A DNA stretch of 64,000 nt from a virus (IMGVR_UViG_3300022654_000689), one strand, 5' to 3'. Shown: positions 3,716-63,698, counted from the stretch's first letter. The notes: a model not told the origin generated them from the sequence alone. A program made the numbers and translations.

Positions 3716-6130
3716 ATGATGAAAACTGTTAATTTTGTAGAGAATATAGAAAGTACCATGAGAAGTATGTATTTTAAAGATGCTAAAAGTAGTAATGTCG
3801 CTGAAAGATTTAATGTATTAGCTAAAGTACTTAAAGATTCAATGACAGAAAGTTGGTATGAAAGAGAAAAGAATGAAAACAATGAAAAAGAAGTACATTA
3901 TTTCTCAATGGAATTCTTACTAGGTAAACAGCTTAAATCAATGATCCTCAACCTAGGAGTAACAACAGAGATAAACGATGCAATGGAAGAACTTGGTTGG
4001 AATTTAGATGAGTTAATAGAATACGAACCAGAACCTTCAACCGGTAATGGTGGTTTAGGAAGATTAGCTGCATGTTTCATAGATAGTATGTCTTCAAATG
4101 GTATAAGAGGATATGGACAAGGTCTTCGTTATAAATCAGGACTATTCAAACAAAAGATAGTTAATGGGTATCAAAAAGAATTACCAGATTTATGGTTACA
4201 AAATGGAATATATGCATGGGATGTAAGAAGAGAAGAACATTTCATAGTTAAGTTTAGAGGAAATGTAAGATTTGAAACTATAAACGGAAGATTAGAAGCC
4301 ATAACAGAAAACTATAAACCAGTAGTCGCAGTTCCTTATGATGTACCAACACCAGGTTATGAAAATGGAGTTGTAAACTATTTAAGATTATGGAATGCAG
4401 AATGCCCAAGTTATGAAATTCTAGATGAATGTGGAATAAACTTTACAAATTATCATGATGTATTAAAAACTAAGAATTCAATAGATGAAATTTGTGATGT
4501 ACTGTATCCAGATGATTCTCATTTCCGTGGTAAAGAATTAAGATTAAAACAAGAATACTTTATGTGTTCCGCTGGTGTTCAATCATTAGTTAAGAAATTT
4601 AAAGATAAAGGAATAAACTTAGAACACTTAGATAAGCATTTAGCAATTCATATAAATGATACTCATCCAACTTTATGTATACCTGAAATGATGAGAATAT
4701 TAGTTGACGAAGAAAAAATGGATTGGGATAAAGCTTGGGAAGTAACAACTAAAGTTATGTCTTATACAAACCATACAATAATGGCTGAAGCATTAGAAAA
4801 ATGGCCTGGATTTATGTTACAATCATTATTACCAAGAATATACATGATAATACAAGAGATAGACAGAAGATATATTGAAGATTTAAGAAATGACAAAGGA
4901 TATAGTTCTGAAAAGATAGACAGAATGAAGATAATAGATAATAATGGTAATATTAGAATGGCTAACTTATGTATAGTAGGAAGTCATAGTGTAAATGGTG
5001 TTGCAGCGTTACACACTGAAATCCTTAAAAAGGATACACTTAGAGATTTCTATAAAGATGAACCTCACAAATTCAATAATAAAACTAATGGTATAGCTCA
5101 TAGAAGATGGTTATTTAGCGCCAACCCAGATCTAACAGAATTTATAGATACATTAATTCCTAATAGCAATTGGAAAAATGATTTAAGTCAATTAAAACAA
5201 TTACACAATTATGTAGAAGATCCTAATGTTTATGATACACTAGGTTCTATCAAGTATATTAATAAAGTTAATTTAGCTAATATGATAGAAAAAGATAGTG
5301 GTATTAAGGTAGACCCTAATTCAATATTTGATATACAAGTAAAACGTTTACATGCCTATAAACGTCAATTAATGAACTTATTAGGAATATTAATGATATA
5401 CAATGATTTAATAAATGACCCTAATAAAGATTTCTATCCAATGACATTTATATTTGGTGCTAAGGCTGCAGCTGGATATCACGAAGCTAAATGCACAATA
5501 AAAGCAATATATGCAGTAGCAGATTTAGTAAACAATGATCCTAGAGTAAACGATAAGATGAAAGTTGTATTCATAGAAAACTACAATGTAAGTAAAGCTG
5601 AAAGAATAGTAACAGCAGCTGATATAAGTGAACAAATTAGTACAGCGTCTAAAGAAGCGAGTGGTACTAGCTGTTTCAAATTTGCATTGAATGGAGCGTT
5701 AACATTAGGAACATTAGACGGCGCAAATGTTGAGATAGCTGAAAATGTTGGATCTCAAAACATATTTATTTTCGGGCTACAATCAGATGAAGTAATTCAT
5801 AGATATAATACTTGGACTGATCTTGGTGGAAAATTTATGATGGATAGAAACTGCAATATTAGAAGAGCTATGGATATGCTAATAAATGGAAGCTTACCAG
5901 GAATAGGATCTGCAGGATTTGACTTATACAGAACATTAGTCAATAATGACCATTACTTTGTGTTATCTGATTTACAAGATTATGTAGACACTAAGTATCG
6001 TATGAATCAATTATATAGAACTAATAAAAATGAATGGAATAAAAAATGTTTTATTAATATAATGAATGTTTATAATTTTACAACAGACAGAACTATAAGA
6101 GAATATAGCAATGACATATGGTTTAAGTAA
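3716..6130 (+). CDS. glgP: Glycogen/maltodextrin phosphorylase (GT35)
   Basis: YFSMEFLLG, GNGGLGRLAACF, LRLKQEYF, HINDTHP, QVKRLHAYKRQ, and PLP-lysine region EASGTSCFKFALNG. Confidence 0.95.
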   Translation: MMKTVNFVENIESTMRSMYFKDAKSSNVAERFNVLAKVLKDSMTESWYEREKNENNEKEVHYFSMEFLLGKQLKSMILNLGVTTEINDAMEELGWNLDELIEYEPEPSTGNGGLGRLAACFIDSMSSNGIRGYGQGLRYKSGLFKQKIVNGYQKELPDLWLQNGIYAWDVRREEHFIVKFRGNVRFETINGRLEAITENYKPVVAVPYDVPTPGYENGVVNYLRLWNAECPSYEILDECGINFTNYHDVLKTKNSIDEICDVLYPDDSHFRGKELRLKQEYFMCSAGVQSLVKKFKDKGINLEHLDKHLAIHINDTHPTLCIPEMMRILVDEEKMDWDKAWEVTTKVMSYTNHTIMAEALEKWPGFMLQSLLPRIYMIIQEIDRRYIEDLRNDKGYSSEKIDRMKIIDNNGNIRMANLCIVGSHSVNGVAALHTEILKKDTLRDFYKDEPHKFNNKTNGIAHRRWLFSANPDLTEFIDTLIPNSNWKNDLSQLKQLHNYVEDPNVYDTLGSIKYINKVNLANMIEKDSGIKVDPNSIFDIQVKRLHAYKRQLMNLLGILMIYNDLINDPNKDFYPMTFIFGAKAAAGYHEAKCTIKAIYAVADLVNNDPRVNDKMKVVFIENYNVSKAERIVTAADISEQISTASKEASGTSCFKFALNGALTLGTLDGANVEIAENVGSQNIFIFGLQSDEVIHRYNTWTDLGGKFMMDRNCNIRRAMDMLINGSLPGIGSAGFDLYRTLVNNDHYFVLSDLQDYVDTKYRMNQLYRTNKNEWNKKCFINIMNVYNFTTDRTIREYSNDIWFK

Positions 6131-58497: not shown

Positions 58498-58533
58498 TAT
58501 TTACTTGTTATAGAATGCAATAACATTTTCATG
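58498..58533. promoter_or_regulatory. Divergent late promoters
   Basis: Minus strand AACA-AGTAAA-TA and plus strand AACA-TTTTCA-TG. Confidence 0.6.
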
Positions 58534-58564: not shown

Positions 58565-59953
58565 ATGAGAATAGCTATAATAGGAGGAGGAGTTGCAGGA
58601 TTATTTGCAGCTTATACATTATTAAAAAAATTTAATGGTGAAAATATAGTGATATTTGAAAAAGGGAAACTAATTGAAAAACGTAAATGTCCAGCTGGTA
58701 AAGATAAGCAATGTATGCATTGTAATATATGTTCTATAACTAGCGGTATAGGAGGTTCTGGAGCATATAGTGATTCTAAATTAAATCTAGATAAATACAG
58801 TAAAATAGGAGGGTCACTAGGAGAGTTTTACAATCCAGAAGAATTAGAAAATTTATTTAATGAGGTACTTAAAATTTACTATGAATTTGGAATGGATCCA
58901 AATCTTAAACAATTTGGTCATGATGATAACGAAGAAACTGTTAGGATCAAAGAAAAAATTAAAAATAATCCTAATATGGAATTAGCAGAATGTGATACTA
59001 TACACCTAGGCACAGATAGAAGCCGAGAGTTGTATAGGAAAATTCAGGAGTATATTTTATCTAAAGGCGTAAAGATTTGCCAGAGTGTGTCACATATTGA
59101 AAATATGGAGGAAAAATTTTTATGTAACGGAGAAATTTTTGATTATGTAATAATAGCTACTGGTAGAAGTGGAAATTCATATCTAAAAGAACTAACTAAA
59201 GATATAGATGTTGAATTTGTTCCTAGTCGTATAGATATTGGAGTTAGAGTTGAAACTACTAATGAAGTAATGAAAGATATAAACAGTAATTTTTATGAAG
59301 CTAAGATATTCTGTAAAGGAGAATATGATGATGAAGTTAGAACTTTCTGTTCAAACCCTTCAGGAGTGGTAGCATCAGAGCAATGGGATATTAAAGACGG
59401 AAAAATATTTACGGTAAATGGTCATGCTTATGCTAACCCTAAACTTAAAACTAATAATACTAATTTTGCTCTACTTGTAACTAAAAATTTTAAAGGTGAT
59501 TTAGATGATCCATTAGAAGATTATGTATATTCAATTATTAAAATGACTAATAAACTTGCAGATAATGGAGTAATGGTTCAAAGTCTTGAAGATCTTAAGA
59601 ATTTTAGAAGAAGTACGGAAGAAAGTCTTAAAAAAATGAATCTTACCCCTACATTAAAAGCATATCCTGGTGATTTATCAAATACAATACCTTATAGAGT
59701 ATTAAAATCTATTCTAGATACCATAGAAATATTAGATGAGGTATGTCCTGGCTTAAATGATGGAAAGAATACATTGCTTTACGGAATAGAAGCTAAGTTT
59801 CATTCAAATAAAGCTAAAATAAATAAATTCGGAGAAACTAATATACCTGGAATATATTGTATCGGGGACTGCTCAGGTTATACTAGAGGAATAATGCAAG
59901 CTGCGGCTCATGGAATATTAGCAGCCACAAGTGTTATAAACAAACATATATGA
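58565..59953 (+). CDS. FAD/NAD(P)-dependent oxidoreductase (COG2509-like)
   Basis: IIGGGVAG, GIGGSGAYSDSKL, HLGTD, DIGVRVE, VRTFC, VNGH, IGDCSGYTRG. Confidence 0.88.
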   Translation: MRIAIIGGGVAGLFAAYTLLKKFNGENIVIFEKGKLIEKRKCPAGKDKQCMHCNICSITSGIGGSGAYSDSKLNLDKYSKIGGSLGEFYNPEELENLFNEVLKIYYEFGMDPNLKQFGHDDNEETVRIKEKIKNNPNMELAECDTIHLGTDRSRELYRKIQEYILSKGVKICQSVSHIENMEEKFLCNGEIFDYVIIATGRSGNSYLKELTKDIDVEFVPSRIDIGVRVETTNEVMKDINSNFYEAKIFCKGEYDDEVRTFCSNPSGVVASEQWDIKDGKIFTVNGHAYANPKLKTNNTNFALLVTKNFKGDLDDPLEDYVYSIIKMTNKLADNGVMVQSLEDLKNFRRSTEESLKKMNLTPTLKAYPGDLSNTIPYRVLKSILDTIEILDEVCPGLNDGKNTLLYGIEAKFHSNKAKINKFGETNIPGIYCIGDCSGYTRGIMQAAAHGILAATSVINKHI

Positions 59954-59979
59954 CAAAACTCGAAGGAGGTGTTGATAAT

Positions 59980-62547
59980 TTGAAACCTCTATTAAGTAAC
60001 GATTTGGCATTAGATGTGTCAATTGAAAATATGTTAATGCAAGTAGGAAATAAACCGGAAAGAGTTGTTCAATTTTATAAATATAATCAAATTCGTAGCT
60101 CTATAGAGATATCAAATATTTTAGACAATGCTAATAAAATTTATGTAGCTGCAGATTATCATTTAAATAAACCTAAAAGAATAATGGAAGGTATACCTAA
60201 AAAGATTCATGAAAGACACAATTCGGTTGTAACAGATAAAGACGCATTTTTGTTTCTAGGAGACTTAGGAGATCCTGAATACCCACTGTCTAAAAATTAT
60301 ATTAAAAAATATATAAATTCATTAAATGGAATAAAAATAATGATTTTAGGTAATAACGATATTAAAAATATTAATTATTATAAATCTTTAGGTTTCGATT
60401 ACGTTATTCAAAGTCTTAAATATAAAGATATGATATTTACACATTTTCCATATGAAACTGATTTAGTAAATATACATGGGCATATTCACGGTGCTGGTTG
60501 CTATTTAAATGTACCATTTAATAAACATCGTGACTGTTATATTGATAGTAACAATTTTTTTCCTTATGAAATAAATTACTTAAGAAATATAAAATATAAA
60601 GGTATAAATGCTAAAAGTAGGCCAATTAATGAATGTTACGAAAAGGAGATGATTTATTTGGATAATGAACTGGAAAAAAATATAGATGACTTAATTCTTA
60701 ATGAAGCTACTGTTGTTAATAAATTTAAACAAACAATGACGCTTTATAATGCAGATACAAGACCAGCGGATGTATTATATCCTAGACATCCATCGGCTGG
60801 TAATAGAATAGACAAACAATCTGGAGATGCAATATTCTTTTTCTCAACTCAAGAGGAAGCTATTAAATATGTTGTAGGTAAAGGTCTTATTAAAGAGTAT
60901 ATAGATTTCTGTGAAGATATGAACAAAGAAATAAAGAAAATAGAACAAAGTGATCCAGAAAAAGCTAAAAGAATTAGATTTTATATAGCTCAAATAAATA
61001 AATTTACTGAAGATGGAAAATATCCTCCTGTATTTAGAAAAATAGGCGTTCATATGAAATATTTTGGTTTAGATGATGCTAAAGTATTCCCTGAATTTCC
61101 ATTCTGTAGAATGTTTATAGAAAGAGCTAGTCGTTCAACTAGACCTTGTTATATACGTATTTGTAACGTGCCAACTGCTGATATTAAACATGGACATTGT
61201 GCTAACTATAAAGAATTTACAGTATTTAAACCATGTAAAGTTGATAAAATGCTTACATTTACATTAGGACAATTGTTTAGTAAAGTACCAGTTAAATATT
61301 TTAATCAATACGATGATTTTAAAAAATTCTTACCAACAATATGTAAAAACTTTGATAAAGATTTATTTAGAGGTTTAATATCTTATCCTGATTTTAGAAA
61401 ACGTCTTCAGTGGTCAGATGGTAAAACAAGTCATGAAAAACTTAATAGCATTGCTACGGAGGGGACTATAATGGAATCATATATACCTTATTGTGAATTA
61501 GAAGAACTTATGGAAGATGTATTTAATGAAGGTTTATTTAGAAGAAAAAAAGAACATGAACCTCCTAAAGAAATAGATGGAAAAGAGTTACTTACAAAAT
61601 CCGCTAAAGTTGCTTTAGGATCTGCAGCTATAGGCGGTGGTGTTACAGCTTTAGCAAATCTTAAATATCTTAGAAAAAATAAAGCCAAAAAAATAGCAGT
61701 TGAAGAAGGAGTATCATTAGAAGAAGCATTAATATTCGTGTTATCTTGTGAACAAGATCTTTTAAATGAGGGATATAGTATAGACGACATATATGAAATA
61801 GATATTATAACTGAATCAAGAAAATATCTGTTACAAGAATTATGTATAGAAGAAGAAATGTCTCTTAAAGAATCTGCATTATTGCTAACACTGATCGAAA
61901 ATGATTTTTTAAATGAAGGTTATGAATTAGAAGAAATATATAATGAAAAAGTTTTTAGTAATATCAAACAAAAATATAATGATTTTAAAGAAAAAAATAA
62001 AGACAAAATTCAAGCAGCTAAAGATTATGGTAAACTAGGATACAAAGGCGCAAAAGATAGTGTAAAAGCTGCAGCTATGGCAGCTGGAACTGGTTACATA
62101 GTAGGTCAATCTAAATTAGGAAGAAAGCTTCAAAATGGCAAAGTTACAGGAAAAGTAGCAGATTTCATGGGAGCTGGTAAAGTTGATCCTAAAGTTTATA
62201 CACCTAAATCAATAGCTAAAGGAGCAGCTATAGGAGCTGGATTATCAGTTGCCGGAGGTATGATAGGTACTCATTTTGCTAAAAAAGCTAAAGAAAGAGA
62301 AGAAAAAGAAAAGCAACAAAAACAAAATGAAGATATAAATTTAATTGAAGAAGGTTGTTCTTTAAAAAATCTTTCTAGTGATGAGTTAATAGAAAAAATG
62401 AGAGATTTAGAAAATGAAATACAAGATTTGGAACATTGGGTCAATAGTAAAGATTCTGATTCTGAAAAAGAAAAAAGACTTAAAGCTGCTAGAAAAGAAT
62501 TAGATGCTGTAGAAAAATTTTTTAAAAATAAAAAATATAACAAATAA
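59980..62547 (+). CDS. Multidomain polyprotein: calcineurin-like phosphoesterase, ART-like domain, and acidic-module/cationic-peptide repeats
   Basis: ADYH, FLGD, LGNND, THFP, NIHGHIH in the N-terminal part; later modules described under findings; SD AAGGAGG with TTG 59980. Confidence 0.7.
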   Translation: MKPLLSNDLALDVSIENMLMQVGNKPERVVQFYKYNQIRSSIEISNILDNANKIYVAADYHLNKPKRIMEGIPKKIHERHNSVVTDKDAFLFLGDLGDPEYPLSKNYIKKYINSLNGIKIMILGNNDIKNINYYKSLGFDYVIQSLKYKDMIFTHFPYETDLVNIHGHIHGAGCYLNVPFNKHRDCYIDSNNFFPYEINYLRNIKYKGINAKSRPINECYEKEMIYLDNELEKNIDDLILNEATVVNKFKQTMTLYNADTRPADVLYPRHPSAGNRIDKQSGDAIFFFSTQEEAIKYVVGKGLIKEYIDFCEDMNKEIKKIEQSDPEKAKRIRFYIAQINKFTEDGKYPPVFRKIGVHMKYFGLDDAKVFPEFPFCRMFIERASRSTRPCYIRICNVPTADIKHGHCANYKEFTVFKPCKVDKMLTFTLGQLFSKVPVKYFNQYDDFKKFLPTICKNFDKDLFRGLISYPDFRKRLQWSDGKTSHEKLNSIATEGTIMESYIPYCELEELMEDVFNEGLFRRKKEHEPPKEIDGKELLTKSAKVALGSAAIGGGVTALANLKYLRKNKAKKIAVEEGVSLEEALIFVLSCEQDLLNEGYSIDDIYEIDIITESRKYLLQELCIEEEMSLKESALLLTLIENDFLNEGYELEEIYNEKVFSNIKQKYNDFKEKNKDKIQAAKDYGKLGYKGAKDSVKAAAMAAGTGYIVGQSKLGRKLQNGKVTGKVADFMGAGKVDPKVYTPKSIAKGAAIGAGLSVAGGMIGTHFAKKAKEREEKEKQQKQNEDINLIEEGCSLKNLSSDELIEKMRDLENEIQDLEHWVNSKDSDSEKEKRLKAARKELDAVEKFFKNKKYNK

Positions 62548-62640
62548 TCATGTATATGATTGAAAATTTTTTAAAAAATTTTTTATAACAAATAATCATG
62601 AATTAAAATATAATAATTTAAAGATAACGGAGGAGAAAAA

Positions 62641-63483
62641 ATGTTAATAGATAGATATATGCAAATGCTAAGAGAAGAAGCAGATTGTGAAGTATATGAT
62701 GAAGTAGGAATGAAATATGAAGGTCCAACTCCTGAATCAAGAGCAAAAGCACAAGCACAAATGCAAAGATATAACAATGAACTAAGAGCTGGAAAAATGA
62801 GAACTGAAATAAAAGCTGGAAAAGAAAGAACTGCTAAATTAGCTAGAAAAGCTGGTCTTAAAAAAGCAGGATTAGCTGCTGCTGGTGTGGCTGCAGCAGG
62901 AGGAGCTGTTTATGGTGGTAAAAAATTAGCAGACCATATAAAAGCTAAAAGAGCAGCTAAAGCTAAAGAAGTAGCAGTAGAAGAAGGAGTATCATTAGAC
63001 GAAGCATTTGAATATGTATTAGAGTGTGAACAATATCTTTTAAATGAAGGATATGAATTTGAAGACATATATGATGAAGATTATGACATGGAAGAAGTAT
63101 ATGATGAAGTAGGAATGAAATATGAAGGTCCAACTCCTGAATCAAGAGCAAAAGCACAAGCACAAATGCAAAGATATAACAATGAACTAAGAGCTGGAAA
63201 AATGAGAACTGAAATAAAAGCTGGAAAAGAAAGAACTGCTAAATTAGCTAGAAAAGCTGGTCTTAAAAAAGCAGGATTAGCTGCTGCTGGAGCAGCTGCG
63301 TTAGGTGGAGCTGCATACGGAGTAAACAAAGCTATAAAAGCTAGAAGAGCTAAAAAAGCTGCTGAAGTTGCAGTAGAAGAAGGAGTATCATTAGACGAAG
63401 CAATGATGTGGGTATTAGAATGTGAACAAGAATACTTAAATGAAGGATACGACTTTATCGATATATATGGAGATTGGGAATAA
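62641..63483 (+). CDS. Tandem-repeat protein (two cationic Ala/Gly-rich peptide plus acidic module units)
   Basis: SD GGAGG, AACA-N6-CA upstream; two units of about 135 aa. Confidence 0.75.
   Translation: MLIDRYMQMLREEADCEVYDEVGMKYEGPTPESRAKAQAQMQRYNNELRAGKMRTEIKAGKERTAKLARKAGLKKAGLAAAGVAAAGGAVYGGKKLADHIKAKRAAKAKEVAVEEGVSLDEAFEYVLECEQYLLNEGYEFEDIYDEDYDMEEVYDEVGMKYEGPTPESRAKAQAQMQRYNNELRAGKMRTEIKAGKERTAKLARKAGLKKAGLAAAGAAALGGAAYGVNKAIKARRAKKAAEVAVEEGVSLDEAMMWVLECEQEYLNEGYDFIDIYGDWE
62689..63290 (+). repeat. 197-bp perfect direct repeat (62689..62885 and 63094..63290)
   Basis: Identical copies by eye, period 405 bp, in frame. Confidence 0.9.
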
Positions 63484-63489
63484 TAAAAT

Positions 63490-63518
63490 ATAGGATAGAT
63501 CATTTTGATCTATCCTAT
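63490..63518 (+). terminator. Terminator hairpin
   Basis: ATAGGATAGATCA/TGATCTATCCTAT stem. Confidence 0.7.
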
Positions 63519-63698
63519 TATTACTTTGTAATTTTATTTTATTTCCTTAATTTTAATATTTAATTTGTAATATTTAATTATTAATTTCAAATATATATTA
63601 TTACTTTGTAGCAGAGTGTATGAACAAATTGTTACCTATAATTTTACGCGTATTATTACATCAAATTTTAATTAAATTAGTGAGTGGAGGTATATAGT

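Follow-up and report, generated by a model that had tools for sequence, protein, structure and literature searches.

A portable ~85-residue unit with an acidic hairpin in two adjacent genes of a large gut phage, and its possible role in head-loaded proteins

A stretch of 64,000 nucleotides from a virus (IMGVR_UViG_3300022654_000689), referred to here as the window, was analysed for two adjacent open reading frames (ORFs), ORF A and ORF B, which together contain four copies of an acidic module. As judged from metagenome homologues, the conserved element is larger than the acidic module alone: it is a unit of ~85 residues in which the acidic part is accompanied by a basic flank, a Gly/Ala core and the sequence YGGKKLxDHIKAKRAxKAKE. 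By its distribution among proteins, the unit is a real, conserved and portable element. Because ORF A also contains a phosphoesterase and an ADP-ribosyltransferase (ART)-like domain, loading of both proteins into the phage head and delivery with the DNA is the likeliest of the explanations considered. It is put forward tentatively, at somewhat less than even confidence; on this view the conserved ends would serve as signals for loading or processing.

The repeated unit and its protein family

The modules start at positions 61693, 61840, 62968 and 63364, by which the four copies in two adjacent genes reported in a preliminary description of the window were confirmed. A hidden Markov model (HMM) of the module was run against the six-frame translation of 115 kb of readable sequence, consisting of the 113.6-kb phage genome record and the window and amounting to about one third of the genome. 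The four copies were recovered at i-E-values of 1e-17 to 1e-23, and no copy besides A1, A2, B1 and B2 was found in the six frames. The two genes and their repeated parts are as follows.

59950-62547, + strand: ORF A, 865 residues, with phosphoesterase, ART-fold domain and a tail of repeated units
61492-61539, + strand: half-module CELEELMEDVFNEGLF (ORF A residues 515-530)
61588-61692, + strand: Gly/Ala core 1 and basic tail (ORF A residues 547-581; simplified insertion energy +6.2 kcal/mol)
61693-61797, + strand: acidic module A1 (ORF A residues 582-616; HMM i-E-value 1.5e-21)
61840-61944, + strand: acidic module A2 (ORF A residues 631-665; HMM i-E-value 1.5e-17), with no Gly/Ala core before it
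62209-62292, + strand: Gly/Ala core 3 and basic tail (ORF A residues 754-781)
62341-62439, + strand: degenerate module LIEEGCSL... (ORF A from residue 798), a clear half-module at this place in relatives
62641-63483, + strand: ORF B, 280 residues, with an N-terminal half-module and two tandem units
62641-62706, + strand: conserved N-terminal motif MLIDxYMxxL[RN]E..EVYDE (ORF B residues 1-22), common to P0007-P0013
62821-62964, + strand: ORF B unit 1, with basic flank, Gly/Ala core and basic helix (residues 61-108)
62968-63072, + strand: acidic module B1 (ORF B residues 110-144; HMM i-E-value 7.7e-21)
63226-63363, + strand: ORF B unit 2, with basic flank, Gly/Ala core and basic helix (residues 196-241)
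63364-63480, + strand: acidic module B2 (ORF B residues 242-280; HMM i-E-value 3.2e-23), ending in ...DIYGDWE at the stop codon

A further half-module makes up residues 1-22 of ORF B. At the DNA level, a repeat finder detected a 137-nt family at 76-80% identity, which matches the acidic module copies, and a 405-nt tandem duplication inside ORF B with 94% identity. The phage genome record (113.6 kb, rated 44% complete) stops inside this tandem repeat (window 62811/62812), which looks like an assembly break at the repeat. A 695-residue protein on an 8.7-kb contig (P0049) is 100% identical to ORF A until residue ~680 and continues with a different short end (window ~61990-62030). This looks like a frameshift in an A-rich run that would truncate the tail after the second module, or like a sequencing error.

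A profile of the unit was compared with 1.84 billion representative proteins, resulting in ~16 true family clusters, all unnamed. Across these clusters the unit is placed C-terminally on unrelated N-terminal parts or is repeated two to three times. The family falls into three groups. Proteins of the first group have 79-180 residues, with an N-terminus of the type MLIDxY[MI]xxL[RN]E..EIYDE, a variable basic low-complexity middle and one unit at the extreme C-terminus. The second group comprises ORF A-like proteins, the tails of which contain two to about six cores and several half-modules. In the third group (P0004 and P0005) three modules are present, each after a strongly basic, non-hydrophobic stretch. 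The fraction of majority residues among the small relatives was 0.74 in the N-terminus, 0.36 in the middle, 0.63 in the core, 0.76 in the basic helix and 0.74 in the module. Lys plus Arg roughly equals Asp plus Glu in every family member, which corresponds to near charge balance. The preliminary description had also noted that the cationic Gly/Ala cores are free of Glu; this is true of the window, but the property is not strict in homologues, some of which have, for example, KAKRSEKAKE.

P0005 (673 residues) is encoded on a 330,661-bp contig outside the window and probably represents a third module-bearing gene of the same phage, as inferred here. It has basic helical stretches (~100 residues) before each module and no Gly/Ala core; four copies of another repeat, NVELQPETKLNKKVS..DMRDFVGAGDGSGHDMKTE, are also present. 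Since its modules follow basic, non-hydrophobic stretches, the Gly/Ala core is not an obligatory companion of the module. Conversely, a looser class of metagenome proteins (P0016, P0020, P0022, P0023, P0031, P0040) contains a Gly/Ala core plus AYGGxKxYxx[YF]Kxx[KR] without the acidic module, often in two to three repeats or at the extreme C-terminus. The core with its aromatic-basic helix is therefore a recurring element of its own.

The JGI metagenome contigs yielded only two hits, both 1.2 kb long, which carry an ORF A-like tail followed by a single-unit gene of 124 amino acids. The pair of an ORF A-like gene and a small gene is thus kept in relatives, and contigs from the bovine gut have differing numbers of units. 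The single-unit gene of the relatives, together with the 94% tandem repeat, indicates that ORF B arose by recent in-frame duplication of a single-unit gene.

Relatives of the unit or of P0005 were not found in the IMG/VR viral contigs. Among 50,697 phage records there was no match to the DNA and none to ORF B, and matches to ORF A were confined to its phosphoesterase part. Searches of the module against Pfam, PHROGs, NCBIfam and the PDB sequences gave nothing above cut-off, and a search of the protein Atlas with P0008 gave no informative match. On these comparisons the module is new and lineage-specific, with no name, no Pfam or PHROG family and no solved relative. A match of the module to a characterised domain, named in the preliminary description as a refuting outcome, was found neither here nor in the fold search reported below.

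Predicted structures of the unit and of the ORF A enzyme domains

The unit was modelled with AlphaFold2 using one small family member and a 12-row family alignment. In the model a helix runs from the basic stretch through VAVEE. After a turn at an invariant Gly come an acidic, amphipathic helix (SLEEA...LNE) and a third, short one; the predicted local distance difference test (pLDDT) score of these helices is 77-82. The N-terminal motif was also modelled as a helix. Because the basic stretch and the start of the module form one helix, part of the supposed free cationic peptide may belong to the folded domain. A fold search with the unit model returned generic helical hairpins only (best Z 6.5). 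Complex prediction with two copies of the unit, run without controls, gave a score of 0.00, which is not taken as a verdict.

The Gly/Ala cores are probably not transmembrane helices. Their pLDDT of 37-44 means that AlphaFold2 predicted no confident helix in the core, and for the best 19-residue core windows the Kyte-Doolittle means were 1.1-1.8 and the simplified Hessa insertion energies +2 to +7 kcal/mol. The cores have net positive charge on either side, against positive-inside asymmetry, and in relatives with up to six cores every loop is Lys/Arg-rich. An insertable hydrophobic helix with positive-inside asymmetry, as expected of an integral membrane protein or holin, was not found, nor was a signal peptide, the N-terminus being acidic and amphipathic. 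Core 3 gave weak matches below cut-off in Pfam and NCBIfam, namely to T7_gp14 (PF24072) and to the ssl2009 family.

Two enzyme-like domains precede the repeated tail of ORF A.

60097-60639, + strand: metallophosphoesterase domain (residues 50-230; phrog_547, E 7.6e-19)
60724-61290, + strand: ART-fold domain (residues 259-447; AlphaFold2 core pLDDT 70-93, five homologues)

Alignment by tblastn to annotated phage phosphoesterases covered only residues 50-230 of ORF A, which is the sole part with relatives in cultured phages; residues 236-540 were seen only in this phage lineage. Relatives from the bovine gut skip ~700 nt (59958-60659) and have a ribosome-binding site and an ATG there instead. 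In these relatives, including the starts of P0050 and P0006, the gene consists of the ART domain and tail alone, with the phosphoesterase unfused.

In an exhaustive VIA structure search with the model of residues 259-447, 44 or more of the 50 best-ranked chains belonged to the ART superfamily (Z 5.0-7.1), with a root-mean-square deviation of 2.6-4 over 78-110 aligned residues. They included the Rhs toxins TreX/TreTu, Tpt1/KptA, diphtheria, pertussis and cholera-like toxins, as well as Arr, PARPs, DarT, ParT, MbcT and an anti-CRISPR. The nearest named clusters in the protein Atlas were ART-PolyVal (0.83) and Arr (0.80), which lie under the 0.9 line and are taken as a lead only. The Pfam ART families did not match residues 259-447 even at E-values up to 10, Foldseek with the domain model against PDB and BFVD gave no match at E <=0.001, and no shorter stand-alone relatives of the domain were found. 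With fold matches of modest Z from VIA and no sequence-family match, the ART assignment is made at the level of the fold. R51, S64-T65 and E187 (segment numbering) are invariant in the five-homologue alignment; in the AlphaFold2 model R51 lies before strand 2, S64-T65 at the end of strand 2 and E187 in a later strand. They are a candidate R-S-E triad, the catalytic triad of the superfamily being R-S-E or H-Y-E.

Expression signals and possible functions

The window has a GC content of ~28% and comes from a large phage. Among its products are structural proteins of the virion, a helicase, a ligase and an SbcC-like nuclease, and its genes for RNA and DNA polymerases are split. The samples that contain the phage DNA are from animal faeces and the bovine gut. 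ORF A and ORF B are the second and third genes of an operon with the following further features.

58522-58533, + strand: AR9-type late promoter motif AACATTTTCATG (AACA-N6-TG), 31 nt 5' of the first gene of the operon
58565-59953, + strand: gene 1 of the operon, flavin adenine dinucleotide (FAD)-dependent oxidoreductase (Pfam Pyr_redox_2, DAO, FAD-depend_C)
62539-62598, + strand: two copies of TATAACAAATAATCATG (AACA-N6-CA; repeat family D10), variants of the late motif with one mismatch, 5' of ORF B
63490-63518, + strand: 13-bp hairpin terminator at the end of the operon, directly 3' of ORF B

The stop codon of the oxidoreductase gene overlaps the start of ORF A, the ATG of ORF B is preceded by a strong GGAGG ribosome-binding site, and there is no terminator between the three genes. 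In phage AR9 the late promoters have the pattern AACA-N6-T-A/G and the early promoters AAATATATATTAT-N6-G (PMC5312081). The late pattern AACA-N6-T[AG] was enriched 10-59 nt 5' of gene starts in the phage studied here (23 versus ~3.9 expected). The early pattern, with mismatches allowed, showed no enrichment in the window. Its only perfect match in the window, AAATATATATTAT-N6-G at 63589-63608, lies directly 5' of an NrdD-like gene that starts at 63684. With a late motif before the operon, a terminator after ORF B and an early promoter before NrdD, the oxidoreductase-ORF A-ORF B operon looks like a late unit distinct from its early neighbour, and by these signals it is probably a late transcription unit. 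Lateness, as claimed in the preliminary description, is thus plausible: the motif 31 nt before the operon and the enrichment speak for it, but ORF B itself has only the one-mismatch variants. Contigs 80-95% like the ORF A and ORF B genes occur in two metatranscriptome runs from the bovine gut; these contigs are relatives and carry neither strand nor ends, and they are therefore not counted as proof of transcription.

At 3716-6130 of the window, an 804-residue ORF encodes a glycogen/starch phosphorylase that is 43% identical to the Salmonella enzyme. The gene is also present in other contigs of human-faecal phages and in a Synechococcus phage and is therefore regarded as an auxiliary metabolic gene. 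Its identification as glycogen phosphorylase ruled out this ORF as a capsid protein.

According to the explanation favoured here, ORF A and ORF B would be expressed late, loaded into the head and delivered to the next host cell with the DNA, like Alt and the internal proteins of T4. ORF A would be an enzyme-carrying cargo, and ORF B and its single-unit relatives would be small basic cargo. The acidic hairpin and the related N-terminal motif MLIDxY..LxE would serve as handling signals, docking the protein to the assembling head core and neutralising the neighbouring basic segment. A prohead protease would probably trim these signals after Glu, candidate sites being VAVE↓E, SLEE↓A and LNE↓G. As payload, the basic and Gly/Ala parts would either remain with the DNA or meet the membrane on ejection. 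The analysis shows the anatomy of the two proteins, their family, the fold assignments and the promoter and terminator motifs, whereas packaging, docking, cleavage and payload activity are inferred.

The candidate sites are strongly conserved. V-A-V-E opens every module without variation, S-L-x-E and L-[ND]-E-G are invariant within the modules, and L-[RN]-E occupies residues 10-12 at the end of the N-terminal motif. Cleavage by the SPN3US protease gp245 follows A-x-E, Val being favoured at P4 (PMC10052503). The agreement of V-A-V-E with the gp245 logo, and of S-L-x-E, L-[ND]-E-G and the N-terminal L-[RN]-E with the L/I-x-E type of T4, is suggestive. The preliminary description had pointed to after-Glu motifs of head proteases, and the invariant V-A-V-E, L-x-E and L-N-E indeed fit the T4/phiKZ type of specificity, but the sites fall inside predicted helices of the folded hairpin.

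Besides this position of the sites, several points weigh against head loading. Motifs of the x-x-E type come cheaply in Glu-rich sequence. The propeptides of SPN3US are nearly all N-terminal (PMC10052503), whereas the module described here is C-terminal or internal. An HMM of the N-terminal motif matched only ORF B in the 115 kb, unlike a general targeting tag. The ART call is made by fold, with Z at most 7.1 and no sequence-family match. The late motif is short, with one mismatch in each of the two copies belonging to ORF B. The operon begins with an FAD oxidoreductase, sits among genes of nucleotide metabolism and adjoins NrdD rather than head genes. Because the family is absent from phage records and IMG/VR, no virion proteome can be transferred to it. 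Virion location and cleavage are themselves predictions.

Some of these points suit an explanation without packaging, which we regard as doubtful and still worth serious consideration. ORF A would then be an enzyme effector in the producing cell, ORF B its small partner and the unit an uncleaved interaction element. The acidic hairpin would bind a basic partner or mimic nucleic acid, the basic and Gly/Ala stretches would be disordered linkers or nucleic-acid-binding tails, and the repeats would only add avidity. Conservation of the module-sharing gene pair in relatives, the prediction of the module as a small folded hairpin (pLDDT 77-82) and the balance of Lys plus Arg with Asp plus Glu in every member are in line with this, as are the operon shared with an oxidoreductase, the adjoining genes of nucleotide metabolism and a tail architecture that differs greatly among close relatives, as in disordered regions. 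However, a late-type signal without an early-type promoter would be odd for an ART or phosphatase acting in host takeover, unless the protein is stored for the next infection, for which Alt is a precedent. In the small members, the outermost residues at both termini are also extremely conserved, which suits a handling signal better than a linker.

A stricter form of head loading is the polyprotein proposed in the preliminary description, in which a protease would remove every acidic module and free Glu-free cationic peptides of ~45-60 residues. These peptides might be ejected and act on the host membrane like fusion peptides or antimicrobial peptides, or they might condense DNA. Multi-unit arrays do recur (two units in ORF B, three in P0005, and three to five in the looser relatives P0016, P0018 and P0020), after-Glu motifs bracket the modules, and the cores, rich in Gly/Ala and of moderate hydrophobicity, lie between Lys/Arg flanks. 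The composition of the cores resembles that of viral fusion peptides and of the PrP 106-126 segment, and residues 759-795 of ORF A match the T7 internal virion protein gp14 below cut-off. Against this, ORF B is not a designed polyprotein but arose by recent duplication (94% nucleotide identity) from a gene with one unit in relatives; P0005 has modules without hydrophobic cores; the prediction joins the basic helix to the module without a break; and the Glu-free property is not kept in homologues. A strict polyprotein is consequently considered unlikely. We judge it similarly improbable that the head stores precursors in which the acidic hairpins mask cationic Gly/Ala segments resembling fusion peptides, and that the protease would unmask these segments and the ejected peptides would open or remodel the host membrane. 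In that case the peptides might possibly let pass the DNA and large cargo such as the virion RNA polymerase and the ADP-ribosyltransferase.

Anchoring in a membrane is rated as very unlikely. The cores would be true transmembrane helices and the acidic hairpin cytoplasmic, the proteins being lysis regulators, holin-like or tethered enzymes. A hydrophobic run followed by a Lys/Arg tail resembles a stop-transfer anchor, the small members have the size of holins, the looser relatives end in a core and basic tail, and there are weak matches below cut-off to Gram_pos_anchor and to the thylakoid membrane protein ssl2009. These resemblances are outweighed by the insertion energies and Kyte-Doolittle means given above, by net-positive flanks on both sides with Lys/Arg in every loop, contrary to the positive-inside rule, by the lack of a signal peptide and of a confident AlphaFold2 helix for the cores, and by P0005, which has no cores.

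Beyond T4 and the phiKZ group, little is known of how jumbo phages choose, load and release head-carried proteins. If the hairpin serves in loading or processing, it would provide large phage heads with a compact, portable tag, and it would identify delivered effectors, an ART-fold enzyme among them, in an uncultured lineage of gut phages. If the cationic Gly/Ala segments are membrane-active, they would offer a testable answer to the question of how bulky cargo crosses the membrane, and masked precursors, if they exist, would be a new class of phage membrane-penetration peptides derived from polyproteins. If neither loading nor membrane activity holds, the unit is still a clean new protein module.

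Comparison with known systems

Precursors of amphibian antimicrobial peptides consist of a signal peptide, an acidic spacer and a dibasic processing site before each peptide. The likeness to this layout drawn in the preliminary description was not sustained: the junctions are Lys-rich throughout, without a distinct dibasic site, and a signal peptide is lacking. In adenoviruses, a maturation protease active within the capsid cuts the precursors pVII, pX/mu and pVI, releasing basic peptides that condense DNA and a protein that lyses membranes. This is an analogy only: the virus is a eukaryotic one, and neither its protease nor its sequences are related. Gp14 of T7 leaves the capsid and meets the envelope, and it has a Gly/Ala-rich hydrophobic stretch, as does ORF A; the match of ORF A to T7_gp14 (PF24072) reached 19.2 bits versus a cut-off of 27 and covers the low-complexity stretch only.

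Polyvalent phage proteins are multi-enzyme polypeptides, including ART domains, for which packaging and injection are predicted (Iyer et al. 2017, PMC5512222). ORF A likewise combines several enzyme domains including an ART, with the weak Atlas lead to ART-PolyVal, but it has only two enzyme-like domains, no association with MuF or portal genes and no Pfam match to the polyvalent domains. Like the phage studied here, the jumbo phages phiKZ and SPN3US (proteases gp175 and gp245) have virion RNA polymerases and many head-internal proteins, and their cleavage after A/S/G-x-E can be compared with VAVE in the modules. Their known propeptides differ in being N-terminal, with 20-254 residues. Homologues of the ejection and inner-body proteins of phiKZ/SPN3US were not found in PHROGs and the phage records.

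The head-internal proteins of T4 carry a 10-residue N-terminal capsid-targeting sequence that is removed by gp21, residues 8 and 10 deciding the cut (PMC9026906). IPI-IPIII resemble the small relatives in being small, basic and fast-varying and in having a conserved N-terminal tag that ends in [LI]-x-E, here MLIDxYMxxL[RN]E; the combination of conserved ends with a variable basic middle is a further likeness. The pattern of a short T4-type tag ending in [LI]-x-E was found in ORF B and in P0007-P0013, without homology to T4. In contrast to the T4 proteins, the larger conserved signal is C-terminal and consists of a hairpin of ~60 residues, and no other gene in the 115 kb was found to have the tag.

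Alt of T4 is a packaged and ejected ADP-ribosyltransferase that loses six N-terminal residues at ITE-6 and 63 C-terminal residues at LTE-619 (PMC5694885). Packaging and trimming are established for Alt and predicted for ORF A. No sequence similarity between the two was found, and ORF A differs by its additional phosphoesterase and by a repeated tail of 325 residues with Gly/Ala cores. Late expression, probable for ORF A, and an ART fold are common to both; in ORF A the fold is followed by a tail with invariant L-x-E and A-x-E. With its metallophosphoesterase and its ART fold, ORF A finds its closest analogue in T4 Alt.

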